64,000 bases of DNA from an uncultured Acidimicrobiia bacterium (GCA_963765075.1 CAVXVA010000008.1:133078-197077); one strand, 5' to 3'; shown: positions 13,593-44,745, counted from the stretch's first letter. The notes: a model not told the origin generated them from the sequence alone. Made by a program: numbers and translations.

Positions 13593-13624
13593 GACGTCAA
13601 CCTAGGACTCGTGGGTTCTCGGTG

Positions 13625-13654
13625 TTGACATGTGACTAATAGGTCACCTATTGT
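13625..13654 (+). promoter_or_regulatory. candidate promoter (TTGACA-18-TATTGT) with embedded GTGAC-N6-GTCAC operator
   Basis: TTGACA at 13625-13630 and TATTGT at 13649-13654. Perfect inverted repeat GTGACtaatagGTCAC at 13632-13647 lies between them. This is the divergent region between the ABC exporter and the ArsR gene. Confidence 0.45.
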
Positions 13655-13661
13655 GTCCTGC

Positions 13662-13994
13662 GTGGCACCCGACGGTGATGACGGCGATCTCGTGTTCAAA
13701 GCGCTGGGCGATCCGACCCGACGTCTGCTGCTCGATCTCCTGTTCGAGCGGGAAGGTCGCACCTTGACCGACCTCGAATCGGGTCTCGCCATGACTCGGT
13801 TCGGCGTCATGAAGCACCTGAAGGTGCTCGAAGGCGCGGGGCTCGTCGTGACCAAGAAAGCAGGACGGGAGAAGTTGCACTACCTCAACGCAGTGCCGAT
13901 CCGGCTGGTGCACGACCGTTGGATCGACAAGTTCACCGAACGGCAGGTGTCCGCACTCGCCGATCTCAAACAGGCCCTGGAGGAAATCGCATGA
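13662..13994 (+). CDS. ArsR/SmtB-family transcriptional regulator
   Basis: HTH region LGDPTRRLLLDLL...LTDLESGLAMTRFGVMKHLKVLEGAGLV. The ORF track starts at GTG 13632, inside the putative operator. I prefer GTG 13662 (about 7 nt after the -10, possibly leaderless), with 13653 also possible. Confidence 0.7.
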   Translation: MAPDGDDGDLVFKALGDPTRRLLLDLLFEREGRTLTDLESGLAMTRFGVMKHLKVLEGAGLVVTKKAGREKLHYLNAVPIRLVHDRWIDKFTERQVSALADLKQALEEIA

Positions 13995-14491
13995 CCGACA
14001 CGACGACCCGCACCACCCAGATGCACCGCGTCTACATCAAGGCGACGCCAGAGCAGGTGTGGCAGGCGATCACCGATCCGGAGTGGAACGCACGGTACGG
14101 CTATCCCGGCCACACCGAGTACGACCTCACCCCTGGCGGTGCCTTCCGCGCCGTCATGCCCGCCGACATGGTGCGCGACTTCGGTGTCCCTGAGGTTGGC
14201 TGCGACGGTGAGGTCGTCGAGTCCGATCCGCCGCACCGCCTGGTCCAGACCTATCGGTTCTGTTTCGACGAGGCGCAGATCGCGGAGGGGTTCCACGAAG
14301 TGATCTGGGAGATCCATCCCGAACACGGTGGGGTGACCCGTTTGACCGTGACCCACGATGTGACCGATGCACCCATCACTGCCGCGATGCTCGAAGGTTC
14401 GACCGACCTGCAAGAGGGCGGCGGCGGATGGGACTGGATTCTTTCCGGTCTCAAGACGATGCTCGAGACCGGCGAGACCTTGGCCGGCTGA
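13991..14491 (+). CDS. SRPBCC-superfamily protein (AHSA1/Aha1-like)
   Basis: ATG 13991 overlaps the arsR stop (ATGA). It shows the ATPEQVWQAITDPE pattern, and ArsR+AHSA1 is a typical gene pair. Confidence 0.7.
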   Translation: MTDTTTRTTQMHRVYIKATPEQVWQAITDPEWNARYGYPGHTEYDLTPGGAFRAVMPADMVRDFGVPEVGCDGEVVESDPPHRLVQTYRFCFDEAQIAEGFHEVIWEIHPEHGGVTRLTVTHDVTDAPITAAMLEGSTDLQEGGGGWDWILSGLKTMLETGETLAG

Positions 14492-14581
14492 GCAAACGCC
14501 ACGGGCGGATCAAAGGGCTCAAGCCGTCTCACATGGGCGCCGATCAGAGGGACGGGTATTCCTTCGAGCAGTGAGAACGCC

Positions 14582-15715
14582 ATGCGGGTAATGACGGTTG
14601 AGTGGTCCCCGGACACAGGCTGGTCCGATCGGCTCGGTGCGCTCGACTCACCGATGACGCTGGTGCTGTTCTTTGGCAATCGGCTGATCGAGGGCGAGAG
14701 CATGCCGCTCGAAGAGCTGGTGGCGGCCCATCCAAAATCCATTGTTGTCGGGTGCTCAACGGCTGGCCAGATCACTGGGAGAACGCTCCGAGACGATGAG
14801 TGCGTCGCCGCGATTGTGCAGTTCGACGCCGTCCCGCTCGCGCTCGCCTCACGAGATGTCCGCGCCGACGGTGACTCAAGAATGGTCGGGGCGGAGTTGG
14901 GTGCGGAGCTCGCCGCTGACGACCTGCGCGCGGTGTTCGTCCTTTCGGATGGGCTCTTGGTCAACGGCACCGACGTCGTACGCGGTCTCGTCGGAGAGGT
15001 CGCGGCCGACGTCCAGGTCACCGGAGGTTTGGCCGGTGATGGCGATGCCTTCGAACGGACATGGGTGTTCGACGGTGTTCGCCGATCGTCAGGGCTCGTG
15101 GTCGCGGTGGGAATGTACGGCGACCGGCTCCGGCTCGGTTCCGGTTCCGGGGGTGGGTGGGGCATCTTCGGGCCCGATCGGATCGTGACGCGTTCGGCTG
15201 GCAATGTTCTGTTCGAGCTGGATTCCAAGCCCGCGCTCGAGCTCTATAAGGAGTACCTCGGCGATCTCGCCATCGGACTCCCGGCCAGCGCGCTGCTGTT
15301 CCCGCTGGCGGTTCGGGCCGGCGCAGGCGACGAAGAGGTGGTGCGGACCGTGCTCGCGGTCGACGAGGCGGATCAGTCGATGACGTTCGCCGGCGACATC
15401 CCCCAAGGTTGGCGGGCGCGTCTGATGCGATCCAGCGCGGATCGGCTGGTCGATGGTGCCGCAGCTGCGGCCGCCGCCAGCCGTGAGGGCGTGAGCGAAG
15501 AGACTCCGGTGCTTGGAATCGCGATCTCTTGTGTTGGTCGACGGCTCGTGCTGGGTGCGCGGACCGACGAAGAGCTTGATGCGGCGCTCGACGGGCTGCC
15601 GGCGAGCTCGGAGTTGATCGGGTTCTACTCGTATGGCGAGATCGCCCCGGGGGTGGGAGGGGCATGTGACCTCCACAATCAGACGATGACTATGACGACG
15701 CTGTCCGAGGTCTAG
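14582..15715 (+). CDS. FIST-domain sensory protein
   Basis: 377 aa. FIST-like patterns VGCSTAGQI and FYSYGEIAP. The stop lies 4 nt before the downstream histidine kinase start. Confidence 0.75.
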   Translation: MRVMTVEWSPDTGWSDRLGALDSPMTLVLFFGNRLIEGESMPLEELVAAHPKSIVVGCSTAGQITGRTLRDDECVAAIVQFDAVPLALASRDVRADGDSRMVGAELGAELAADDLRAVFVLSDGLLVNGTDVVRGLVGEVAADVQVTGGLAGDGDAFERTWVFDGVRRSSGLVVAVGMYGDRLRLGSGSGGGWGIFGPDRIVTRSAGNVLFELDSKPALELYKEYLGDLAIGLPASALLFPLAVRAGAGDEEVVRTVLAVDEADQSMTFAGDIPQGWRARLMRSSADRLVDGAAAAAAASREGVSEETPVLGIAISCVGRRLVLGARTDEELDAALDGLPASSELIGFYSYGEIAPGVGGACDLHNQTMTMTTLSEV

Positions 15716-15719
15716 CTCC

Positions 15720-18312
15720 ATGGCCGAGCGGCGCGAGGTCATGAGCCACCGACTGGTCGCCCGGTTGATGAAGCGCTGCGGCATCGACGACTCAGCCCCC
15801 CCGACTGCGGAGGCATGGCAAGCGTTCCTTCGGTCGACCACGGCGTTACTCGACGACTTGGAGCAGGATCGCTATCTCCTCGAACGGTCGCTGGAAGCTT
15901 CGTCGAACGAGATGCTCGGCTTGAACCAGCATCTCCGTGTGTCTGCAGAGTCTCTCGCCGCCGACCGAGAGGAGCTGCGGGGCACGAACTCGTTGCTGGC
16001 GGCGACATTGGAGTCCACGACCGACGGAATTCTCGTGGTGGCATCCGACGGCCGGATCACGAACTTCAACCGCCGCTTCGTCGAGATGTGGAATCTTCCG
16101 AGCGATGTGCTCGACACACGCGACCGGACGAGAGTTGCCGACCACGTCGAGAGCCAGCTGCTCGATCCAGATGGGTTTCGCAGTGACCTTGGCCGCTTGT
16201 ATTCGGACCCGACGTCGGAGAGCTGCGACATCCTTGAGTTTCGGGATGGCCGGGTCTACGAGCGCGCCTCGCGCCCACAACGCATCGACGACCAGGTGGT
16301 GGGGCGGGTCCTCTATTTCCGTGATGTCACCGAAGCTCGGCGGCTCCAGGTCGAGCGCGACGCGGCCGCGACGGAGCTGCAACGCGTCCTTGACTGTGCA
16401 CCGGACTTTCTCTCTACTCTCGACGTCGCGACGTTCGAGATGGCACTCCTGAATCGCCCGGATCTGCTCGGACACGACCCCGATGGCATCACCGGGATGC
16501 TCTCACTCGAGGAGCTCGTCCATCCGGACGATGTCGGGGACGTCGCGACCTGGTGGTTCGAAGAGGTGATCGCCGCTGGTGCAATGGGAAGCTTCGACCA
16601 CGAGATGCGGTTGCGCCGGAGCGACGGGCTCTATGTGTGGGTCAATGTCCGGCTCAGTCCGCTGACAATCGACGCCAACGGGAACCCGACGACGTTGTTG
16701 GCCGCAATCACCGACGTCGACGACCGCCATCGCGCAGAACGCGCGCTGGCTGAGTCCGAACGACACCTGCGGGCCGTGCTCGAGGCCTCACCGGACGTGG
16801 TCAGCTTTCTCGATCTCGTGGATCTCCGACTCGACTTCGTGAACGCGACTGAGTTTCTCGGCTATCCAACGGATCAGATACGTCACCTCACTCTCGAATT
16901 GCCGCAAGAGTTCGTGCACCCTGACGACCTCGGGAACCTCACCGAACTCATGGCGGGCAACTTCGCGGCGCCGAGAAATGAGGGCATTGAGTTCCGCTGT
17001 CGGCACGCAGGCGGCCAATGGGAATGGGTCCGGATCCGTCAATCGGTGGCCTTGTACGACACCGACGGGCATCCGAGCCGCATCCTGCTCACCCTCACGA
17101 TGATCGGCGAGGAGGTCGAAGCCCGAGAACAGAACGATCGGCTTCGTACGCAGCTCGAACAAGCGCAACGGCTCCAAGCCGTCGGGCAACTCGCCGGCGG
17201 GGTCGCGCACGACTTCAACAACTTGCTGTCCGCGATTCTCGGATTCGCGGAGTTGCTCCAGGATGCGGTGTCCGGAGACGAAGCGGCGTCCGACCTGCGA
17301 GAGATCGGCGAGGCCGCGCAACGCGGGGCCGAACTGAGCCGCCGCCTACTCACCTTCTCCCGCGGGGACACCACGGCGATTACCGCGGTCGATCTCGGAG
17401 CGGTGCTGAACGGGATGCACTCGCTGCTGGCCCGAACAATCGGTGAGTCCATCGAGCTGGGCATGCACATCGAAGACACGCCCGCGGTCGTGGCCGACGC
17501 GACCGGTGTCGAGCAGGTTCTGATGAACCTGGTGGTCAACGCGAGGGACGCGATCGACAGTTCGGGGCGAATCAGCGTGACGACCGCCGTCTGCGATATC
17601 GACGAGGAGACATCGGTCGAGGCGCACGGCGATCTGACACCGGGCTCGTATGTGGTGCTTGCGGTTCGAGACACGGGCGCAGGCATGGATGCGGCAACGG
17701 TGCAACGGGCCTTCGAACCGTTCTTCACGACAAAGGCCGCGGCCAGGGGTACCGGTTTGGGGCTCGCCACCGTGTATGGCATCGCCCGTCGCTTCGGTGG
17801 GCATGTCGAGATCACCAGTGATGTCGGGGAGGGGACCACCGTCTCGGTCTATTTCCCGGTGGCCGACGCCGCCTTGGTTGCGACTGCGCCGAGTCCACCC
17901 AGCCTGGAGCGGGTGACTTCGGACGGTCCGACGGATGCGCGCATCCTGCTCGTCGAAGACGAACCCGCGGTGCGCGCGGCGACGCGGCGCCTTCTCCAGC
18001 GGGCGGGCTATGACGTCACCGAAGCCACGAACGGCGCGGCGGCGTTGGCCTTTGCAAGGGAGGCCCACTTCGATCTGCTTCTCACGGATGTCGTGATGCC
18101 TGGCGAGATGAGTGGTCCCGCGACCCGCGAATGCAGTTCGTGGGGTCGGCGCTTGTGACTACGTCCTCTACATGAGCGGGTACGCCCCGGAGGCCGTCGC
18201 CAATCACGGGTTCATCGAGCCCGGAGTCCCCTTGCTCGAGAAGCCGATTTCGGCTGACCAACTCCTCGGAACGATCGAACGGTTGCTCGCATCTGCACCC
18301 GTCGCGCGGTGA
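15720..18312 (+). pseudogene. hybrid sensor histidine kinase (3 PAS, HisKA, HATPase_c, REC) with a 1-nt frameshift inside the REC domain (or a base-call error)
   Basis: H-box GGVAHDFNNLL, then N/G boxes, then REC ILLVEDEPAV...TDVVMPGEMSG. Frame 0 then stops at 18158. ORF 18112..18312 (frame +1) supplies ANAVRGVGACDYVLYMSGY...LLEKPISADQLL. Confidence 0.85.
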
Positions 18313-20573: not shown

Positions 20574-20646
20574 TCCCTATGAACGCCTTCAGGCGATCCG
20601 GCAGGTGCCGATACCCACCAGATAATCGGATGGCCCAGGAGGACCG

Positions 20647-21534
20647 ATGAACAAGCCGCGTGGAACGAAACGGGCTCGATGGACGAAAGCGGTGGTCGTG
20701 ACGCTGGTCGTGGCCGGCGCGACGGCAGGGTGTGGGACGGATGGGAATGGACGAAACAGGTCCGCGTCGCCACGGCGTGAGCCGGCGTTCGCGATGCAGG
20801 AGGAGATGCCGCACGAGATGGCGCCGATACCCGAGTACGCCGCGGCATGGAGGCTCACGGTCGGTTCGTCCGCGGCCGATGGCGTCGTGACCGGCAACGC
20901 CGTCGACTTCTCGGTCCAACCGGAGGGCTTCGTCCTGGACTGTGACTACGCGGGCAAGGCGTCGGCTCCCGGTATCGGTCAGTACCACGTCACCCTCGAC
21001 GGCGCGCTGATCGATATGGAGTGCTCTACCGAGCAGCAGGTTTCCATGCAGAATGTCAAGCCCGGCCATCACGAGATCGCGGTCGTTGCAACGCTGAACG
21101 ATCACACCGAAGTGATGAACGCCGAGGACGCGTTCTCGTTCGAGTACCGGCCGACGTCGCCGCTTCCCTTCGAAAAGGGCGATCACTTCGACGGTCGCCC
21201 GAGCATCCGCATCGTGTCACCGACCTCCGGCACCGTCGTCTCCGGGAACTTCGACGTGGTCGTTCAGGTGTCTCGCCTCGACATGGACTGCGGTCTCTTG
21301 GGCAAGAAGCCGGTCCCGGGGTACGGACATTGGCATGTCAACCTCGACTCGACGATCGGTCCGATGATGGGAATGGCCACGATGGTCGGGATGAGCTGCA
21401 CCAATGTGCTGCGGGTTTCGACCAAGGGTCTGACGCCGGGCTCCACCCACAAGCTGATCGCCCTTGCGGTGAACGGGCTCCACTCGCCGCTTGAACCGCC
21501 GGTCGAATCCAGCGTCGACGTCGTTATTGGCTGA
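20647..21534 (+). CDS. lipoprotein with two tandem copies of a G-x-H/Y-H-V-x-L-D domain
   Basis: Signal peptide plus lipobox (VVAGATAGC). Internal repeat: GIGQYHVTLDG...GHHEIAVVATLNDH versus GYGHWHVNLDS...STHKLIALAVNGLH. This is possibly DUF4399-like (unverified). Confidence 0.65.
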   Translation: MNKPRGTKRARWTKAVVVTLVVAGATAGCGTDGNGRNRSASPRREPAFAMQEEMPHEMAPIPEYAAAWRLTVGSSAADGVVTGNAVDFSVQPEGFVLDCDYAGKASAPGIGQYHVTLDGALIDMECSTEQQVSMQNVKPGHHEIAVVATLNDHTEVMNAEDAFSFEYRPTSPLPFEKGDHFDGRPSIRIVSPTSGTVVSGNFDVVVQVSRLDMDCGLLGKKPVPGYGHWHVNLDSTIGPMMGMATMVGMSCTNVLRVSTKGLTPGSTHKLIALAVNGLHSPLEPPVESSVDVVIG

Positions 21535-23266
21535 CCGGCGCGTCGGTCCCTGCGGGCGACCGGAGCTCGGCGCTCCGACCCAGCGTGCCGGCGACCGCAT
21601 CGAGCAGCTCATCGGGAGTGAACGGTTTCTGGAGGAGGTTGGCCTCGTCGTGGGCCACGCCTCGGCGAAGGATCTCGTCGTCGGTGTAGCCGGACATGTA
21701 GAGATAGGTCAGGTCGGTCCGGAGGTCTCGCGCCGCCTCGATGACGGCGCGACCGCCCATGTCCGGCATCACGACGTCGGTGAGGAGCAGGTCGATGCGG
21801 GCCGGGTCCCGACCGAGGATCTCGAGCGCGGCCACCCCGTCACGTGCGCTGAGGACGGTGTATCCGTCGCGCGTGAGTGTGCGCACGACGAGGTCACGGA
21901 GCGCATGCTCATCCTCGACGACGAGAACCGTGTCCGACGCCCGGCCCCGGGCCTTGGGTTTTGGGGTCGCGGGCGCGGCGGTGGGAGCGTCGCCGGTCGC
22001 TGGGAACGCGACCTCGAAGCGGGACCCTCCACCGGACGGAGTCGTGATGGAGATGGTCCCGAAGTTCTCCTTCACGATCGCATCGACCGTCGAGAGCCCG
22101 AGGCCGGTGCCCTTGCCTGGGGGCTTCGTTGTGAAGAACGGGTCAAAGATTTGGTCGCGGATTGCTTCGGGGATGCCGGTGCCGGTGTCGGTGACCACCA
22201 AGCGCACCCGGCCCAGCACCGGGGTGACCTCGATTCTCAGCTCACCACCGGTGGGCATCGCGTCGCGGGCGTTCACGGCGAGGTTCAGCACGAGCTGCTC
22301 GATCTGGGTTCGATCGGCGCGGATGGTGGCGGTGCCCGGGTCGACGGCGATCGATACGCGTATGTCCTCACCGATAGTTCGTGCGAGCATGCGCTCGAGT
22401 TCCCGGACGACGCGGCCGAGATCGAGCACGGTTGGCTGCCGAACCTGTTTGCGACTCATCGTCAGGAGCTGGCTGGTGAGATCGGCGGCTCGGCCCGCGG
22501 CCTCGTCGATGTCCTGGAGTGACTCGGCGGTCGCCGGATCACTCGCGGCGAGGTCGTCGATGAGCAACGAAACGTTGCCTCGGATCACGGTGAGAAGATT
22601 GTTGAAGTCGTGGGCGATACCGCCCGCGAGCAGACCGATCGCCTCCATTTTCTGTGCTTGACGAAGCTCGTCGTCCTTGCGTCGCAGTTCGGCCTCGGCC
22701 CGTTTCCGGTCGGTGACGTCGATCATGCAGCCTCGGGTCTGTACGATCCGTCCGTCGGCGTCCTGTTCCGGGATGGACTCGTCGTAGAACCACACGATCT
22801 CGCCGCTCTTGCTGATGACCCGGTACTCCGACCGATTTCGGTGACCCGCGTTGTTGAAGGCGATCTCCTTTTGGAGTCGTTCCCGATCATCGGGGTGCAG
22901 GATCTGCATGAAGAAGTCCGGACTCGAATACCACTCCTCGGTCGAGTAGCCGATGTACTCCTCGAGTTTCGGGCTGATGTACATCGCCGAGCCCACCTCG
23001 TCGGCCGCGTCGACGTAGATGATCGCCGGGATTTCCTGGACGAGGTTGCGGAACATCGCCTCCTCATCCTGGAGTTTCTGCGCGAGCCGCAGGTGCCGAC
23101 GAGCCACTTCGATAGCCGTAGCTCCGGCGACCAGCGTGCCGATCGCGAGCGGAGCCGATCCCACCTGAATCGACGCGTATCCGAGGGCGCCGACGGCGAT
23201 CGACAGCGTGAGTAACAGGCCGACGGACACGTTGCTGGATCGCGAACCTGAGTGTCGCCTCATCAC
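21524..23266 (-). CDS. membrane-anchored hybrid sensor histidine kinase (PAS, HisKA, HATPase_c, REC)
   Basis: 580-aa ORF. H-box GGIAHDFNNLL and REC VLVVEDEHALR...TDVVMPDMGG...YMSGY. Confidence 0.85.
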   Translation of the reverse strand: MMRRHSGSRSSNVSVGLLLTLSIAVGALGYASIQVGSAPLAIGTLVAGATAIEVARRHLRLAQKLQDEEAMFRNLVQEIPAIIYVDAADEVGSAMYISPKLEEYIGYSTEEWYSSPDFFMQILHPDDRERLQKEIAFNNAGHRNRSEYRVISKSGEIVWFYDESIPEQDADGRIVQTRGCMIDVTDRKRAEAELRRKDDELRQAQKMEAIGLLAGGIAHDFNNLLTVIRGNVSLLIDDLAASDPATAESLQDIDEAAGRAADLTSQLLTMSRKQVRQPTVLDLGRVVRELERMLARTIGEDIRVSIAVDPGTATIRADRTQIEQLVLNLAVNARDAMPTGGELRIEVTPVLGRVRLVVTDTGTGIPEAIRDQIFDPFFTTKPPGKGTGLGLSTVDAIVKENFGTISITTPSGGGSRFEVAFPATGDAPTAAPATPKPKARGRASDTVLVVEDEHALRDLVVRTLTRDGYTVLSARDGVAALEILGRDPARIDLLLTDVVMPDMGGRAVIEAARDLRTDLTYLYMSGYTDDEILRRGVAHDEANLLQKPFTPDELLDAVAGTLGRSAELRSPAGTDAPVSQ

Positions 23267-34016: not shown

Positions 34017-34019
34017 CCC

Positions 34020-34796
34020 GTGGACCTCGGAATCGCGGGTCGCACGGCCCTCATCTGCGCCTCGTCGCGCGGACTCGGGTTCGCCTGTGCCGACTCGCTC
34101 GGACGCGAGGGTGTCCACCTGGTCATCAACGGCCGGATAGGAACCCTCGCGGGTGCTGCGGACGAACTACGCGGCCGCCACCGCGTCAGGTGTCGACGGA
34201 TGCGGGCGACATCGCGGAGGCGGCAACCCGCGATCGGTTACTCCAGGTCTGCCCCGAGCCCGACATCTTGGTGAACAACAACAACGGCCCGGAACCGGGA
34301 CGATTTCAGGATTGGGATCGCGCGGACTGGATTGCTGCGCTCGACGCCAACATGCTTGCGCCGGTACTGCTGATCCGCGCCGTTATCGACGGCATGTCGG
34401 CGCGCCGCTTCGGTCGGATCGTCAACATCACCTCGGCCATGGTGAAGACACCGATGTCGGCCATGGGGCTCTCCACCGGTGCGCGAACTGCGCTCACTTC
34501 GGTGAGCAAGGCGCTGTCTCGAGACGTGGCCTCGGCCAACGTCACGATCAACAACCTGCTGCCGGAACGCTTCGACACCGCCCGCCAACAACAGATGGCG
34601 GAGCTGCATGCCGCGCTCGGCGACATCACCGTCGAGGCGGCCTACGCAGCAGATGAAGGCGACGATCGCCGCGAAACGGCTGGGCCGGCCCGACGAGTTC
34701 GGCGATGCGTGCGCGTTCCTGTGCAGTGCACAGGCGGGCTACATCTCCGGTCAGAACCTCCAGCTCGATGGCGGCAGCTACGCAGGCCTGTTGTGA
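34020..34796 (+). pseudogene. short-chain dehydrogenase/reductase needing two frame corrections (or base-call errors)
   Basis: Frame 0 gives MDLGIAGRTALICASSRGLG...HLVINGR. The frame of ORF 33788.. gives DIAEAATRDRLL...PDILVNNNNGP...NITSAMVKTP...TINNLLPERF. Frame 0 resumes (ORF 34608..34796) with MKATIAAKRLGRPDEFGDACAFLCS...GQNLQLDGG. Shifts at about 34165-34200 and about 34649. Confidence 0.8.
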
Positions 34797-37487: not shown

Positions 37488-38701
37488 TCACACCTCTTGG
37501 TACACGATGTCGGTGATGTCCATGAGTGCCAGCCCACCGCCGCCGTCGACGCGCCGCGGACCGTCGGACAGCGCGTTCGTCAGCGTCGCCAGCGCGATGT
37601 CCGCCGACATGTTCTGGTCGATCCGCATCCAGGTGTACAGGCCCTCCACAAGCCCGTCGGTATGACCACCCAGGAGCAGGTGCGTATAGAGCCCGGGGGA
37701 ACTCCGCGACCAGCCGCTGCCCGACACGTTCCCATTGATGCCCGACAACCTTGCGTCGTCCAGCTGTGAGCCGGCGTTGTTCAAGATCCAGTACGCGTGC
37801 ATGTCGTCGAGCTTCTCGCTGGCGACCCTCCTGGGGTTGACGTTGACGAGATTCAGCCAGGTGTGCTCGATCTGGAGCTGCAGCACGTCGACCGCGATCA
37901 GCGCCCGCACGAGCGTCACCAGAGCCTCGAGCTGAGCCTTCGGCGGAAGGTAGACGCACAGCTCCTTACCCTTCTTGTCAAGGCTCGGGAGGTTGCGGAT
38001 GGCCGATACCTTCGTCGCGTTGACACCGTTGTGCACAGCGCCGTCCTGTCTCATCTGGTCGGCTTGCCCGGCGTTGCCCCACGGATCGTTCACGAACTCG
38101 ATGCCGATCGACGTCCCGATCAGGGTCGGCAGGTGATCGCGAGCTCACAAACGTCGAGGAACTGTCGGATCGTGCCGTCGCGATCGATGCAGAAGTGCGC
38201 CATGGGCCGGTACGAGTGCTGGACGCCACCACTGTCCCGCCAGGTTGCGACCCGGAAGTCGCTGACGTGCAGCAGATCGCGGCTCCCGGCCGTCTCGTGG
38301 AGAGCGATCTTGTTCAGCGAGGCCGCCGGGCGGTATCCGCCACCCGAGTAGACACGCATGCCGGGGTGGAGCGGATCCGCGAAGAACCGGTCTGCGTCGC
38401 GGGCGGCGTCGTCGAACGTGCCATCGGCCTTCTGGTACATGCCACGCCAGTTCGTCAAACCCGCAACCGCTCCCTTTTCGGCGCCGTCAACGACGAGGGT
38501 GTCGGTCGCCGCCGGAACGAAGTCACGAATGCGTTGCTGGTTGCTCGTCGAGCCGCCAACGGACACGCTCCCTGAGCTAGTGCTTGCGAACGCTGCGGCT
38601 TGATAGGCGTCCTTGTAGTAGACGAGGAGTGGAACTGTGGCGTCCGCGTAAGCGGTGATCGTCTCCACGACACGCTCGGTCTTTGCCATGAAGGTCTGCA
38701 A
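37488..38701 (-). pseudogene. island gene C: amidase_2 (PGRP-type N-acetylmuramoyl-L-alanine amidase) domain protein, one frame disruption
   Basis: ORFs 38120..38701 and 37488..38093 join across about 38100-38125 (...DGTIRQFLDV / ARDHLPTLIGTSIGIEFVNDPW...). Signatures KIALHETAG, HFCIDRDGTIRQ, SIGIEF, GGHTDG. No signal peptide. Likely start ATG 38689. Confidence 0.65.
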
Positions 38702-38719
38702 GTCTTCGTAGCTTACGCC

Positions 38720-41700
38720 TTACCGGGAATCGACCACGATGCGGTAGGTCGTGTTGACACTGCTGGCGTCGCCGGGCCAGCGGTCACGAGGCGACCGTGG
38801 AGAGCGCGTCGTCGATCGATCGAGATCGGTCACCCAGATCGGTCCGAAGCGCTCGAGAATGTCAACGTAGTGCGAGACTGGGAACTCGGCATTCGGCACG
38901 TCGTACTGCATGCCGGCGACACCGGCGACCTCGGTGACCTGGTCAAGGGCAGCCCGGCGTCGATGTACGGCAGCCACTCGGCACCGATCGAAGGGATGTA
39001 CTCGTGGACCGACTGGGCGGCCTGGTTCTTCCAGTTGGCCATCATCGTGGCGACGGTCGCCCAGCACGCCATCGGCGTGTCCTGGCGCAGTGGTCCAACG
39101 TGCCGGGAATGGAGACGTCGTGCTTTGTCGCCTCCGCCTCGATCACGACCTCGAGGCTCTTGAGGTTTCCCTCGGCGTCGCTCTCGGTCGCCTTGACCGA
39201 GCCCGCACCTTCCTGCGAGAGCTGGACCGCGGACCTGATCGAGGACGGAGTAGCCCTCCGCTCATCGCGATCGGCCTCCGCCCCCGCGGCGGCACCGCCG
39301 TCGATCTGTTGCTGCGCGTGGGCCTTGACCAGCGTGCCGTATTCCTCGTCGTTCAGCGCTCCCTTCGTCTTGGCCGAGTCGAGCGTCTCCATGATCTTGT
39401 CGGAGTGCTCAGTGTTGTGGGACTGCATCGCCATACCCTTCGCCATCTCGGCAAAGGCCTTCGTGTTCTCCTGGTTGGAGAGGTAGGTGCGCATCGCGTT
39501 CTGCTGGGTGGCCCCCAGGCCGGTGATGTCGTTGAAGATACCGGCCTTGCCGAGCAGCTCGGTGATGCCGCCGAGTCCCTCGCCCAGCGCTGGAAGTGCC
39601 GGCGCGTTCTGGATGTTCACGAGCGGCGGCGCGAACGCTCGAACGCGGCCTTCCAGTCGGTGACGGTCGGCGTGGGCGTGGCGACCGGCAGGAGCGCGGT
39701 TGGCTCGTCGGTACGGAAGCGTTCCCAGTCCTGTGACGAGTTCTCCTTCACGCGCTCGCAAGCGTCGCACACGCCCTGCACCGCTTCGAGGAACACCCCG
39801 TCTGACGGCACACTGATGCGGTACGGGGGCACCGGCTCCTCCGGCCGATAGTGGTCCATGATCGAGCACGCGCTCGGTCTCGCCTTCCTCGTCGACCTCC
39901 GAGAGGTAGGACTGGCTCACGCGGTAGCCCGCGGCGACTGGGAAGATGATTGAGTTCCCCGAGATCCCGAGCAGCTGGTTCTTCACAACCGACGCGAGGC
40001 TGCGGGCCGGTTGCGGGACGCCGAAGTCGTTGTAGACATCGATGTTGAACCCGTCGAGCAGCATGTACCGACGGTCTGGATCCAGCTGTGTCCAGAGGAC
40101 CTTGTTGTAGTGCTCGATGTTGCTGTTGAGGTGCTCGATCAGCTTGCGGGCGAGATACCGGTCCTCGTCATGCGGGTCGCGCTGCTCGGAGGAATTCATC
40201 GGAGCGTTCACGACGTATGGAGAAACCACGTTGTCGTACAGATCGGTGTTGACGGTCGTGTTGACGACATAGCCGTCGGAGTGGCTCGCCGTGTAGTGGA
40301 TGCTCAGGCCCTCGATGCTGAGCGTCGCCTGGTCCCAGAAGTCGGCCCAATAGCTGATCGTCTTGGAGTAACGGATTCGTACCTCGGTGATCTCCCGCCT
40401 GTCTTCGACGTGCGGGCTCCGAAGTTCATTCTGATCAGACGCCGGCCGCCGTGGTACTTCCCCGCTGGCGTCGTATCAAGAGTGGTAAAGGGCTCCAGCG
40501 TGATCGTGTTCTCCGTGAGGGCCTCGAAGATGCGCGGCGCGATCTCCTCGTTGAACGTCTGATCCCACTGTGAGATGGTCTTGTGGGCGAAGTAGTTCTG
40601 CAGGAAGGCCTCGAGGTCGTCGTAACCGAGCAGCCCGGCGACGGCTCGGCACAGGCGGTCATCGCGACTTCCGGGCTCGAAGAAGTCCTTGAAGTTGATG
40701 ACCTCGATGACGTCTTCGGGACGGCCCGTCTGGAAGTTGTCGTAGATACGGATGTGGGAGTCGATGAACTTCTCCCGCTCCTCCCAACCGTGCTTCGAGA
40801 TGTCCGGCCCGAGGAAGGCGTCGGCGATGAAGCCGAAGAGGCCACCACCGTGGTGGTTCACCAGCACCTCGCGCTTGACCACCGGGAAAGACTTGACCCG
40901 GTCGTAGACGGTCTTGGGGCGCGGGATGTCGACCCGCAGGTTGAAGTGTCCGGTCACCGACGTGATCGGGTCGTCGCAATAGGCGCCGGCAGGGAAGTCG
41001 ACGAACTGGTAACCGGACTGGATGCGGGCGTTCGCGTCGAACGCCGGGATCAACGGATGCTTGGCGCGATAGCGGAGGAACGGTACGGGCTGGAGATAGG
41101 TGTTGGCCGGGAGCGGAAGGAGGTGCTGTGCGAGCACGTCCGACCACTTGTAGATGTTGCTCGGCGAGAACTCCGTCATGAGGAGAGGGACGAAGATGCA
41201 CTCCTCGACCGACTCGAGCTCCTGGAACACCGCGAAGTGCCGCAGCACCTCGAAGTACATCATCGTGAGCGCATGGCAGTGGTTATGGTTGGCGATGACG
41301 TCAGTCGTCAGGTCGTACGTCTGGCCCTCCCGGACCGTCGTTACCACGGTCGCATTCAGCTGCCGATAGCTGCGCGCGTTCTGCAGGATGCCCTGTCTCA
41401 GCTGCTCGCCGAAGAACATCGCAGTGTTGCGCGAGCTGTTCTGCGACGTGTTGGCTTCGGAGTTGGAGTACCCGCCGGCGACGCCCAGCGATGCCCCGAT
41501 ACCCCCGTACGACACGCCGACTCCGAGCCCGGCACTGACGCCAGCAGTGTTCGAGTCGCTGTGACCACGCAGCGCCTCAGCGACGTTGCCGCTCACCTGA
41601 TCCAGCACGTTCCGTTCGTTGATCAGGCTGGCGCTCAGCGACTCCGCTTGGGAGATCGACTGCGACTCGGACGCCTGAAGCCGATGACGTGCGTCAATCT

Positions 41701-42943
41701 GGACGATCTCACGTTTCTGGCCAGGCGCCAGGGCGAGGGAGTAGAGCAGGTCACCGAGCGAGTAGCCGTCGGCCTTGAACACCGCCTTGTAATGCAAGAC
41801 GTGGCCGGTTGCGATCGTCACCGCCTGGTAGAGCGACAGATTCTCATGGGCACCGGGAGCGTCCTGCCAGCGAATCGGGTTGGCGAGGCTGACCCGGTCG
41901 CGGGTCTGGGTCACCGTCCCGCCCTGGAGGTCGAAGTTCCAACCGTCGGAGTTCCGCACCAGCGTGTAATTGGCAACGTCCGGATCGGAGGTCCGCACGA
42001 TGCCTCGATACGAGAACTCGGCCAATGTGCGATTCGGCACGGAGAGGTTCACGCACCCGGCACCGAGGTCCTGGGTGTAGTCACCCGAGCCGACGAGGTC
42101 TGCCTGGTCAGGGAGGCGCCCAGCCCCGTTCCCGCCGTGACAGTCGCAGTCCTCACCGTCCGCGTGTGGGCAGGTCGGGTCGGTGACGAGCAGGTAGAGG
42201 AAGTCATCCGAGATGGTGTCCGGCGAATTCTCAGCGTGGACCGCGATGTCGGCCGGATGGTCGGGCGCAAGTGACGTCAGCGCCTGCGCGTGGACATAGT
42301 CCCCTGACGGGTAGGGCATCCAGAAGTTGCCCGACGAGTCGGTGGACGCCGCCCCGACGACCCTCCACACGCCGTCGTCGGTCTCCTTGGCCTGAACGAT
42401 GACGGTGACGTCCTTGACCGGGCAGTCCTTCACGAGTTCGACGACGCGTCCGCGCAGCCGCTTGCCCACCGACGTCGGCCCCTCGCCGGGATCCAACCGC
42501 ACAGGCCTCACACGGTCGACGACGATCTCGAGCTCCGCGAGCTCCTCCGAACGCGCCGGATGCGTTGCTGTCCACTGCACGACTCCGTCGAAGGACTTGA
42601 CGGTGACCGCAACCAGCGCAGGCCGGCCTCCGACGACGATCTTGCGTGACTCGGCGAAATCGAAGGGAACCCGTCCGTGTTCGAGTCGGTTGACGCTGTT
42701 GGCCCAGTCGTAGCGGAAGGACGTCGCGAGCGAACCGTCGGAAGGTTGGTACTGCGCTTCGAGTTCGTAGAAGACCAGATCCTTCTTCGTGAGCGCCGGT
42801 CGACCGTCGGAACGCAATTCGAAGGTGCCGGCGATCGTCAGTGGTGCGAGCTCGCCGAGCTCGAGGGGGAAGTCGAAAAGCGCGGGCAGGTACCGGACGA
42901 CCCACTTGAGGAGCTCGGGCTCGGGCTCGAGCCCGATGCTCAC
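38720..42943 (-). pseudogene. island gene B: ~1,400-aa multidomain protein of unknown family with a C-terminal papain-like Cys-peptidase module; at least 5 frame disruptions
   Basis: ORFs 40304..42943, 39042..40229, 39617..39859, 38830..39072 and 38720..39067 tile one reading unit. This needs 1-nt shifts at about 40414-40417, 39853-39863, 39620-39645, 39093-39106 and 38947-38949. GTG start 42943 overlaps the gene A stop (GTGA). Confidence 0.6.
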
Positions 42944-43591
42944 GAGGGACCGTCGCAGGACCTCCCGATTCTCCGGCTGAAGTCGTCGAAGATGGTGTCG
43001 GGTCCGATTTCGGTGGCATCCAGATACCGAATGAAGAGCAGTGCCAGGAACTGCTCGTCACGCCCGGTCAGATCTGACCAGACACGGGCGTACTCTTCGA
43101 GGCGCTCGGCGTTGACGAGCACGATCCGACGTTCCAACTCAGGCCCGGGATCGGCATCCGTCGCGCACTCGAGCCCCGACGCCGCCCACAAGCGCGCCCC
43201 GTCCGAGAATGCCCCACTGACGATCAGGGGGATTGCGCGCACGATCGTCGTTCCGACCACGGCACTGTCGATGCTGAACTCGACGGGAATTCCGAAGGCC
43301 AACGACGCCAGTCGGCCCTCGGCGAACGCCGTAAGGAAGAATCGAACGAAGCGGCTCCGCGCTGCCGGTCGGCGCGCCGACGAGCCCTGACGCCGACGCG
43401 ACGATCGAGTACTGATCAGCGTCGAGCCGCTGATCCGCTCCTACCGGGTCGGTTTCGACTAGTACCCGCTCGATGCGGTCGTCGCCAGCGACGAAATCGA
43501 AGACCGGCAGCTGCGCTCCTATCTGAACGGAATCCACCGGCGCATCTACGTCCGCGCCGCGATAGGCGAAACTTCGCTGCAGCGTGACCAT
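42940..43591 (-). pseudogene. island gene A: ~217-aa orphan protein, one frame disruption
   Basis: ATG 43591 follows GGAGAGGGGG (MVTLQRSFAYRGADVDAPVDSVQIG...). At about 43335-43357 the sensible reading moves to the frame of ORF 42940..43302 (...RFVRFFLTAFAEGRLASLAFGIPVEFSID...). No family recognised. Confidence 0.5.
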
Positions 43592-43666: not shown

Positions 43667-44080
43667 GTGATTTCCAGGGCCACCTTCGAATGTCGAGACA
43701 GGGGGCGTCCGCCGACCGGGACCGCAGAAAGAACTGACACTGACAAGAAGCGCGCGTCCTATGAAGGCAAGCTCAAGCGTCTCGAAGCCGAACGCCAGAA
43801 GCTGCTCCAAGCCCACTACGCCGATGCCGTACCGCTCGATCTGATGAAGAGCGAACAGGCGCGCATCACCGAAGAGATCGCCAGCACCAACAACGCGCTG
43901 CAAGGTGCGGTGTTCGATGCTGAGCGCATCGAGCAGACTGCCGAGCGGGTAGTGCAGCTCCTGAAGAACTGCCAGACGACCTACGAGGAGATGGGGCCCC
44001 ACGAACGCCGGCTCATGAACCAGGCCTTCTTTCACAAGATCTGGGTCACCGAGGAAGGCGTCGTCGGCTGGGAGTACTAG
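43667..44080 (+). pseudogene. C-terminal fragment of a large serine recombinase gene
   Basis: Coiled-coil/C-terminal motifs KLKRLEAERQKLLQAHYADAVPLDLMKSEQARI and RRLMNQAFFHKIWVTEEGVVGWEY. The resolvase catalytic domain and zinc ribbon are absent. The frame is interrupted by TAG at 44078. Confidence 0.65.
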
Positions 44081-44254: not shown

Positions 44255-44342
44255 TGGCGGAGGGAGAGGGATTCGAACCCTCGGTGAGTTTCCCCACACA
44301 CGCTTTCCAAGCGTGCCGATTCGGCCGCTCTCGCACCCCTCC
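44255..44342 (-). tRNA. tRNA-Ser (anticodon GGA), CCA encoded
   Basis: Reverse complement has acceptor GGAGGGG, anticodon arm CACGC-TTGGAAA-GCGTG, a long variable arm, T arm GAGGG-TTCGAAT-CCCTC, and terminal GCCA. Confidence 0.9.
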
Positions 44343-44530
44343 GGGCGTCTCGCGAGCGAGACGTCGAGTGGGTGATGGTAGCGGGCGAGGTCCTGATACC
44401 CTCCCCTCGCGGACCGTGCTAGGTGGGGAACCTGTGGTGCCCTGTAACCCTCAATCCACATGTGGGGGGCTGAATTCCTGCCTGAGGCTCGAGCCGGAAT
44501 AGGGAAGGCGACTCGCACGCAGCGTCGAGG

Positions 44531-44625
44531 GCCGGGTCCTGCGCAACGAGATCTCGTGAACCGAGTCAGGTCCGGAAGGAAGCAGCTCTCAGCGGGCCCT
44601 CTCGTGTGCCGCAGGGTTGCCTGGT
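44531..44625 (+). ncRNA. ffs: signal recognition particle RNA (small bacterial 4.5S type)
   Basis: Conserved domain IV string gtgaaccgagtcaggtccggaaggaagcagc. It is closed by helices cctgcg/cgcagg and acgaga/tctcgt. The classic position upstream of dnaX-ybaB-recR fits. Ends are approximate. Confidence 0.75.
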
Positions 44626-44745
44626 CTGAGCCAGCGACGAGACCCGCGCCCTATTGCGTCGAGTCGATTGCAGGTGCACGGTCCGCATCCGCGAATTTGC
44701 GGGTGGTCCCTCACTCCGGGACGCCACGCGAATACTCTCCCGCCC

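Follow-up and report, generated by a model that had tools for sequence, protein, structure and literature searches.

In a window of 64,000 nucleotides (nt) from an uncultured Acidimicrobiia bacterium (GCA_963765075.1 CAVXVA010000008.1:133078-197077), the minus strand carries a single giant gene of about 2,030 codons, which belongs to a family spanning many phyla that, judged from sequence, is on balance probably a polymorphic toxin system directed at the cell wall. The arrangement follows the logic of polymorphic toxins on a new scaffold and is not a phage lysis cassette: a long conserved body is followed by a papain-like peptidase domain (Peptidase_C70, here C70) and by an exchangeable tail, which in this copy is a divergent amidase. 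If this is true, it adds a large antibacterial family that spans phyla and has polymorphic-toxin design, with a delivery scaffold for which neither a database model nor a paper was found, and with no secretion system or immunity gene, which raises the question how a signal-less protein of 220 kDa brings wall-cutting enzymes to a target. The tails comprise at least 18 modules, many of them with no known family, and are candidate new lytic enzymes. The copy in the window is damaged and adds little alone; the family is large and mechanistically puzzling.

Architecture of the giant gene

The window from 43591 to 37488 was colinear with residues 3-2034 of an intact open reading frame (ORF) of 2,034 amino acids (aa) from Chitinophaga sp. 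CF118 (L015) when the two were compared by tblastn and by a protein-to-DNA dynamic-programming alignment, with 1,978 residues aligned at 47% identity. The gene starts with an ATG at 43591, with GGAGAGGGGG just before it, and stops with a TGA at 37490-37488. In L015 the C70 domain lies at residues 1510-1675 and a module resembling the amidase of the window at 1695-2033 (phmmer E 3e-102), and both end domains, C70 and Amidase_2, were recovered by Pfam. Body, C70 and amidase are found within a single ORF in L015, L043, L051, L052, L076 and P0108, and the same domain order is seen in metagenome contig L002. From the N-terminus the order is a variable N-terminal region, Ig/transthyretin-like sandwiches, a hyper-conserved core, a helical region, a linker, C70, a Gly/Ser junction and the polymorphic tail. 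The parts located in the window were:

37488..43591, minus strand, giant gene (the giant protein B and the amidase protein C of an earlier note on this DNA, joined), ~2,030 codons after frame repair
42960..43591, minus strand, variable N-terminal region, ~210 codons, with two frameshifts (~43375, ~42999)
42188..42457, minus strand, transthyretin/CarboxypepD_reg-like beta-sandwich; several such Ig-like domains make up part of the first third of the body
41144..41800, minus strand, hyper-conserved body core, near-identical across phyla
39100..39640, minus strand, conserved pre-cargo linker FAPPLVNIQNAP ... LLGKAGIFNDITGL ... QQQIDGG (39294-39323), common to all homologues and just ahead of the variable C-terminal modules
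38600..39099, minus strand, Peptidase_C70 (AvrRpt2-like papain fold, Pfam PF12385)
38534..38599, minus strand, Ser/Gly-rich junction AAAFASTSSGSVSVGGSTSNQQ, at which the constant part gives way to the polymorphic tail
37491..38533, minus strand, divergent Amidase_2/PGRP-fold tail, ~350 aa (Pfam Amidase_2, PF01510, with AF2 and Foldseek)

A phylum-spanning family with polymorphic tails

An intact 879-aa stretch of the body (40307-42943) had 101 relatives in the protein collection, and a genome scan found the giant family at 333 loci among the GTDB species representatives, in many phyla. These include Bacteroidota, Pseudomonadota, Myxococcota, Bacillota, Actinomycetota and others, thus both Gram-positive and Gram-negative bacteria, and the hosts are soil, marine and predatory bacteria. 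In good assemblies the intact members are single ORFs of about 1,750-2,450 aa, and between phyla the body keeps 40-58% identity. In four intact members neither Pfam nor NCBIfam recognised a domain within the first ~1,500 aa, the body in the window matched nothing in NCBIfam, PHROG or PADLOC (for PADLOC and NCBIfam this holds over the full length of the gene), and no published description of the family was found in the literature. A 2,264-aa homologue (locus L046) is present in a metagenome-assembled genome (MAG) of Candidatus Methanoperedens, an archaeon, and a C70-bearing homologue (P0042) is annotated in the fungus Thelonectria olida; these two could reflect cross-domain transfer or contamination.

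The C-terminal ends differ between members. C70 was present in 46 of 75 giants, and 40 of these 46 have a further 290-550 residues past C70, which fall into 18 mutually unrelated clusters. C70 is therefore the near-constant element and the amidase one among many exchangeable tails. When the ends of 64 intact members were surveyed with Pfam, the domains recognised were:

Peptidase_C70, 42 members
DUF2272, 8 members
Amidase_2, 7 members
Beta-lactamase2, 2 members
Pesticin, 1 member
Peptidase_M15_4, 1 member
Peptidase_C11, 1 member
DUF5675, 1 member
C39_2, 1 member

An M23 tail was also seen in the protein search, and DUF2272 belongs to the NlpC/P60-Tse1 group (PMC10318531). No conserved neighbour gene was found among the 75 loci, the best gene family being common to 7 of the 75.

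The C70 domain and its role

The earlier note had proposed a papain-like peptidase at the end of a giant protein and, next to it, an amidase of the Amidase_2 type. All motifs that it quoted were present on the minus strand inside 37488-39110, distributed over three frames as its mention of a repaired terminus and an alternative frame had implied:

39099-39022, minus strand, VGPLRQDTPMACWAT...
38872-38828, minus strand, HYVDILERFGPIWVT
38805-38776, minus strand, ALHGRLVTAG
38305-38285, minus strand, ALHETAG
38197-38162, minus strand, HFCIDRDGTIRQ
38111-38094, minus strand, SIGIEF
37670-37653, minus strand, GGHTDG

Frames were joined by eye before C70 and the amidase were scored with Pfam. The frame-repaired peptidase scored 54.9 bits on Peptidase_C70 (cut-off 19) over profile positions 15-140 of 141, compared with 63-88 bits in intact homologues, which confirmed the peptidase call; this peptidase is fused to a giant protein, in which it is internal. 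The catalytic residues aligned at Gln 39084-39082, Cys 39066-39064, His 38799-38797 and Asp 38731-38729. In an alignment of 10 sequences the Gln, Cys-Trp, Gly-Pro-x-Trp, His and Asp-Pro columns were invariant (Q7, C13, H104, D127), so that the Gln noted six residues ahead of Cys-Trp is a true family column, and so is the His of ALHGRL. The suggestion that ALHGRLVTAG might be the catalytic His strand was thus correct; two shifts that compensate each other over a distance of about 30 nt have put the strand out of frame. The C70 profile also matched the solved AvrRpt2 structure (6hqz, E 2e-4), with the Gln, Cys, His and Asp columns aligned. As sequenced the domain is not in one continuous frame, being interrupted by frameshifts at ~39095, ~38949, ~38809 and ~38778 and by a TAA at 38722-38720.

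Given that C70 is constant ahead of hyper-variable tails, it may act as a release protease that cuts the tail free, by analogy with other polymorphic toxins, rather than as a second lysin. A near-constant peptidase before a hyper-variable tail is the release-peptidase position in polymorphic toxins (PMC3482391). Homologues have a G-rich or ...GEG junction at the same place after C70, and their sequences are unrelated beyond it; such a conserved junction is in line with release. AvrRpt2, the characterised member of Peptidase_C70, cuts proteins and itself, not peptidoglycan. Self-processing of the AvrRpt2 kind fits a release role.

The strongest alternative for this domain, which we regard as a serious possibility although a less probable one, is that C70 is itself a cell-wall endopeptidase standing beside the amidase in a two-enzyme lysin head. 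Papain-fold domains (NlpC/P60, CHAP, DUF2272/Tse1) often cut peptidoglycan (PMC10318531), and a distant subfamily of ~1,410-aa proteins ends in C70, which must hence be the effector there. The AvrRpt2-type cleavage motif PxFGxW occurred in 1 of 76 proteins and there at an irrelevant position. Two of the giants (P0007, P0072) carry DUF2272 with no C70 recorded, which suggests that a papain-fold domain may replace C70 in some members. Both the release-protease and the co-lysin reading of C70 fit the data.

The amidase tail

The tail scored 29.4 bits on Amidase_2 (cut-off 26), a marginal match that covered only profile positions 6-105 of 131; the tail of L015 scored 34-37 bits. An AF2 model of the tail (pTM 0.79, mean pLDDT 69) gave 50 best Foldseek matches in the PDB that were all Amidase_2/PGRP proteins (LysCS, T7 lysozyme, AmpD and PGRPs among them), with probability up to 1.0 and a TM-score of about 0.5 on the target, and a profile of the module weakly matched XlyA, T7 lysozyme, AmiD and AmpDh2. 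The amidase call, including its first two signatures, held.

The LHET motif has its His at 38299-38297 and its Glu at 38296-38294, the Glu of GIEF is at 38099-38097, and GHTDG has its His at 37664-37662 and its Asp at 37658-37656, and the tail has one frameshift at ~38137. Across 11 aligned sequences LHET, Q..D, H, G-x-E-F-x-N..W, QxE, W, H, D-G and Y-T-W-x-R were invariant. H81 and E82 (LHET) and E148 (GIEF) were invariant and align with XlyA and T7 lysozyme; in GH(T/S)DG, H293 was near-invariant (Asn in P0103) and D295 invariant. The first zinc His, the Glu and the second His are in place, and the canonical third ligand is not at its usual spacing: no Cys, Asp or His was found at +8 to +10 from the second His, where an invariant Y-T-W stands instead; an invariant Asp is located at +2. 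From these alignments the tail is likely, although not certain, to be catalytically competent.

Long insertion into the amidase, which had been noted, is real and conserved; the module has two inserts, one of about 45 aa and the other of about 90 aa. The N-terminal part of about 125 aa that had been left unassigned proved to be composite: its first ~40 aa are the end of C70, then follows the Ser/Gly linker, and the rest (~75 residues ahead of LHET) is a conserved and confidently modelled N-terminal sub-domain of the amidase module.

An exhaustive HMMER search for the long-insert amidase gave 53 clusters with a limit of E ≤ 1e-30 and a total of 316 with E ≤ 1e-10, and many of the best-scoring matches were the C-terminal end of proteins longer than 1,000 aa. 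The giant body was present on 20 of the 147 matches checked; others were on a different large carrier or on short proteins, a few of which had signal peptides. This second carrier (P0138, P0141, P0144, P0157, P0164, P0186) is 1,050-1,790 aa long, starts with MDALLWELL...(S/T)PDD..EVLIKL, bears the same long-insert amidase tail and has no similarity to the giant body; it may be another undescribed toxin scaffold. In Arthrobacter sp. SAFR-044 (L039) C70 is followed by a canonical Amidase_2 domain (72 bits) that clusters apart from the long-insert type of the window, and the tail of Zhihengliuella salsuginis (L056) is homologous to it, so that the pairing of C70 with an amidase exists with two clearly different amidase tails.

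The N-terminus, body and linker

The gene product begins with MVTLQRSFAYRG... and has no signal peptide, which agrees with the absence of an export signal reported earlier. The extreme N-terminus (43556-43591 in the window) reads MxxLQ(K/R)xFxY; its first ten residues, with F/I at position 8, are kept across phyla and the next ~200 are not, and it could be an unrecognised export or assembly signal. The sandwich at 42188..42457 had weak Pfam matches to CarboxypepD_reg (E 2.5e-4) and phage_tail_N (E 3.7e-4), a profile search of the PDB led to transthyretin-like proteins, and the AF2 model of this part (pLDDT ~90) led to transthyretins in Foldseek. Over the whole body the AF2 model starts with Ig/transthyretin-like sandwiches, continues with long beta-hairpins that flank a Gly/Ser-rich segment of low confidence, and ends in helices. 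No hydrophobic transmembrane helix was found in the body.

Chitinophaga, Paenibacillus and the actinobacterium-like genome of the window have an almost invariant core. Its motifs are ADGYSLGDLLYSL (41714-41773), tandem glycine zippers GLGVGVSYG/GASLGVAGG (41468-41542) and NHNHCH (41273-41290). It had no Pfam match even at E 10, and neither a family nor a solved fold corresponded to it. NHNHCH, which is rich in His and Cys, resembles a metal or catalytic site. In sequence order, the zippers (GxxxGxxxG type) are followed by SNS.S.ASQNSSRN...QFFGEKLRQ and then by VANHNHCH. The linker, which in the window precedes C70, is in one homologue (P0105) joined directly to an amidase tail, with no C70 between them.

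Proposed function and relation to known systems

In the mechanism that we propose, the conserved body would deliver the cargo, with the sandwiches binding a surface and the glycine-zipper core acting on a membrane. The tail would be the killing enzyme, which in this copy would cleave N-acetylmuramoyl-L-alanine bonds in peptidoglycan. C70 would most likely cut the tail free, as AvrRpt2 processes itself, and might also or instead cut peptide stems. An immunity gene would not be needed if the enzyme is harmless in the cytoplasm of the producer, and the producer may need no immunity protein because the substrate lies outside the cytoplasm. An internal peptidase often releases the variable toxin in polymorphic toxins (Zhang et al. 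2012, PMC3482391), and the type VI secretion effector Tde1 is reported to need a glycine zipper for its translocation (PMC10240207). The effector logic directed at peptidoglycan, which the earlier note had set beside that of a routine endolysin cassette, is upheld by this polymorphic-toxin architecture.

The family resembles the known polymorphic toxins (Rhs/YD, CdiA, MuF, TANFOR; PMC3482391) in its large conserved N-terminal scaffold, in an optional internal peptidase ahead of the cargo, in a demarcating junction followed by hyper-variable C-terminal enzymes (18 tail types in 40 loci) and in the occurrence of the same amidase cassette on unrelated scaffolds (the MDALLWELL... carrier and short proteins). 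It differs in that the giant scaffold has no Rhs, filamentous haemagglutinin, PAAR, LXG, MuF or TANFOR part, and in that the family has no signal peptide, linked secretion system or adjacent immunity gene. AvrRpt2 (PDB 6hqz), a type III effector of Pseudomonas and Erwinia, is of the same Pfam family and its Gln, Cys, His and Asp align; the similarity to the solved structure is, however, remote (E 2e-4), and C70 is here internal in a ~2,030-aa protein, in a non-pathogen context, with no RIN4-type cleavage motif. With the Amidase_2/PGRP enzymes (T7 lysozyme, AmpD, AmiD, XlyA, LysCS, PGRP-LB) the tail shares the fold, the zinc His of (L)HET, the HF..D.DG...Q strand, the Glu of GIE and the His of GH(T/S)D. 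It is about twice their size (350 aa) on account of the ~75-aa sub-domain and the inserts of ~45 and ~90 aa, its third ligand (Cys/Asp) is not at the usual spacing, with the invariant Asp at +2, and its Pfam score is barely over the cut-off. Pesticin, colicin M and other wall-targeting bacteriocins are likewise signal-less, stand-alone proteins in which an N-terminal part delivers a wall-degrading C-terminal domain, and one member of the giant family carries a pesticin domain. The giants exceed these proteins five- to sixfold in size, neither a TonB-box nor receptor logic could be identified in them, they have no neighbouring lysis or immunity gene, and they occur in Gram-positives, Gram-negatives and one archaeal MAG.

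Several observations weigh against a wall-targeting toxin system. The assignment of a function to the family rests on domain homology and architecture, and the fold of the body could not be assigned by structure or profile comparison. The adjacent immunity gene that is the classical hallmark of polymorphic toxins was not found in the window or at the six amidase-type loci, which have no downstream ORF in common, and neither linked secretion-system genes, at the loci examined, nor a known trafficking domain were found. The Beta-lactamase2-like and clostripain (C11) tails and many tails with no Pfam match are not obviously cell-wall enzymes. The homologue that lacks C70 (P0105) indicates that C70 is not required for every tail, and the missing third zinc ligand together with the Asn in place of the second His in P0103 means that the amidase tail could bind peptidoglycan and not cut it. 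Finally, the membrane role of the glycine zippers is drawn by analogy, in a body with no hydrophobic transmembrane helix.

A bolder version takes the same absences at face value: the giants would be self-sufficient bacteriolytic toxins, in which the glycine-zipper/NHNHCH core is a new translocation device that works without a secretion system and C70 frees exchangeable wall hydrolases that have no immunity partner. We consider this possible but doubtful; as a class of bacteriolytic toxins it would cover at least 333 species.

Still less probable, although it deserves mention, is that the family is no antibacterial weapon and serves in endogenous wall remodelling or autolysis, or as a toxin against eukaryotes. 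Such a role would be in line with the failure to find an immunity gene or a secretion signal, with the action of AvrRpt2 within plant cells, with the homologue annotated in the fungal genome and with the tails that are not wall enzymes. It accords poorly with the Pfam-recognised tails, which are mainly hydrolases of the bacterial wall and include pesticin, a known bacteriocin domain, with a tail polymorphism so extreme that it is typical of conflict systems and not of housekeeping autolysins, and with hosts that are soil, marine and predatory bacteria.

One gene and not two proteins

Comparison with intact homologues shows that B and C of the earlier note belong to one gene of about 2,030 codons, in which the C70 and amidase modules are the two final domains and make up the last 25%. 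The notion that the paired modules belong to two proteins, a giant B ending in the peptidase and a separately translated amidase C that together form a lysin set, was accordingly not supported, and we regard it as very improbable. It draws on the sequence as it stands, with a TAA at 38722-38720 and an ATG at 38688, and on the source annotation, which lists separate small ORFs of 189 aa (P0110) and 201 aa (P0102). These ORFs are the halves of one amidase domain, split at the frameshift at ~38137, and are thus frameshift artefacts and fragments either way. Both the Pfam match and the homologue alignment of C70 cross the TAA, the match reaching about 40 residues beyond it into the supposed N-terminus of C; the TAA aligns within the invariant D-P-x-x-G motif and is best read as a +T/-G indel pair; no obvious ribosome-binding site was seen just upstream of the ATG at 38688; and the homologues with intact frames are single ORFs. 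Since the C70 domain runs through the TAA, C has no N-terminus of its own, and the statement that C has no export signal becomes moot.

Genomic context

The giant gene is flanked on one side by genes for WS/DGAT, TetR, a glyoxalase, a short-chain dehydrogenase/reductase (SDR), an FAD monooxygenase and an FAA hydrolase, and on the other by the signal recognition particle (SRP) RNA, dnaX and recR-like genes. The gene downstream of it is the convergent FAA hydrolase, 107 nt away, and no immunity gene is adjacent. Three further features are located beyond its start:

43667..44080, plus strand, integrase remnant, C-terminal ~110 aa only (PHROG 95 'integrase', profile 455-562 of 651, E 8e-5)
44255..44342, minus strand, tRNA-Ser(GGA) (ARAGORN), immediately upstream of the integrase remnant and the giant gene
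44414-44681, plus strand, large SRP RNA, between tRNA-Ser and dnaX

The phrog_95-type remnant is read, from its sequence, as part of a large serine recombinase. The G+C content is 62-65% over the giant gene and ~67% over the window. The integrase remnant, the tRNA-Ser and the lower G+C look like traces of an old integrated element. tRNA-Ser(GGA) is a likely former integration site, and the arrangement suggests that the giant gene came on an element that was integrated there and has since decayed. No direct repeat (at least 14 nt) of the tRNA-Ser end and no att-like repeat was found that would mark the island edge.

An origin as a prophage or actinophage lysis cassette, with a LysA-type endolysin made up of peptidase and amidase, is the least probable of the alternatives: this combination is common in endolysins and an integrase remnant and a tRNA gene adjoin the giant gene, but body, C70 and amidase all have no PHROG match, there is no holin, spanin or structural gene among the housekeeping flanks, the modules sit at the very end of a ~2,030-aa protein, and the 75 related loci share no conserved neighbour and none is next to holins in an inducible prophage. 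That no holin had been seen was correct for the whole neighbourhood, which holds no phage lysis genes; the analogy with actinophage lysin A was not supported. Mycobacteriophage lysin A and other modular endolysins do have a peptidase module followed by an amidase module, and differ from this end of a giant chromosomal protein, which is not in a phage and has no PHROG match, holin or cell-wall-binding C-terminal domain.

State of the gene in the window

As sequenced, the giant gene of the window cannot be translated. Frame-by-frame translation showed that the coding sequence changes frame repeatedly across the minus strand, and the alignment to L015 placed at least ten ±1 frameshifts, near 43375, 42999, 40402, 39866, 39637, 39095, 38949, 38809, 38778 and 38137 (three extra bases and seven missing bases), in addition to the in-frame TAA. 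At the TAA, deletion of one T and insertion of one G would turn DSR*G into DPGKG, and homologues have DPATG. Additional shifts at 40789 and 40674 proposed by the protein-to-DNA alignment were rejected, as the unshifted frame gives normal protein there, and at 38137 we prefer the loss of one base, with which the invariant His is kept, to the two events chosen by the alignment.

With roughly equal probability this copy was acquired horizontally and is now in decay, or it stands in a part of a long-read assembly that was badly polished. That the frameshifts are assembly errors and that the organism makes the full protein has in our view a chance only slightly short of even. The source assembly looks like a long-read MAG, and other genes in the window are frameshifted as well (the P-type ATPase, metF, the SDR twice and dnaX). 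Within the giant gene only ±1 indels and no large deletions occur, the length is kept (~2,030 versus 2,034 codons), and several shifts compensate one another within 30-400 nt. An independent Logan contig shows one indel difference from the window in 1.4 kb, and the low-coverage metagenome contig L002 ('4x') is broken in the same manner. Decay is favoured by the indel density, which at ~1.6 per kb in the giant gene is about tenfold above the ~0.1 per kb of the remaining 58 kb with its several unbroken ORFs of 2.2-2.4 kb, by the apparent decayed island with its truncated integrase beside tRNA-Ser, and by the absence of the 879-aa ORF from the protein search results although the collection does contain further ORFs from this contig. 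A link to methylation-related nanopore errors at GATC was considered and discarded, given that GATC occurs every 96 nt in the window and proximity to the frameshifts is meaningless.

Indels in the window are not limited to the giant gene. Single frameshifts split a copper-type P-type ATPase (~7350), metF (~10510) and dnaX (~46800, in a Pro/Ala-rich linker), and two frameshifts in the SDR (34017-34793) lead to read-through into the next gene, the FAD monooxygenase. The Logan contig (run ERR11593397; locus L084) is 99.8% identical to window positions 20580-22035 and lacks one C at 21872, by which a 580-aa ORF, unbroken in the window, is split; the difference is either strain variation or an error in one assembly. 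In metagenome contig L002 ('ctg353434_4x', 13600-16405) the body-C70-amidase gene is likewise frameshifted, into calls of 1,340, 178, 115 and 428 aa, and breakage of this kind implies that database entries for the giant family are often fragments of 900-1,500 aa.

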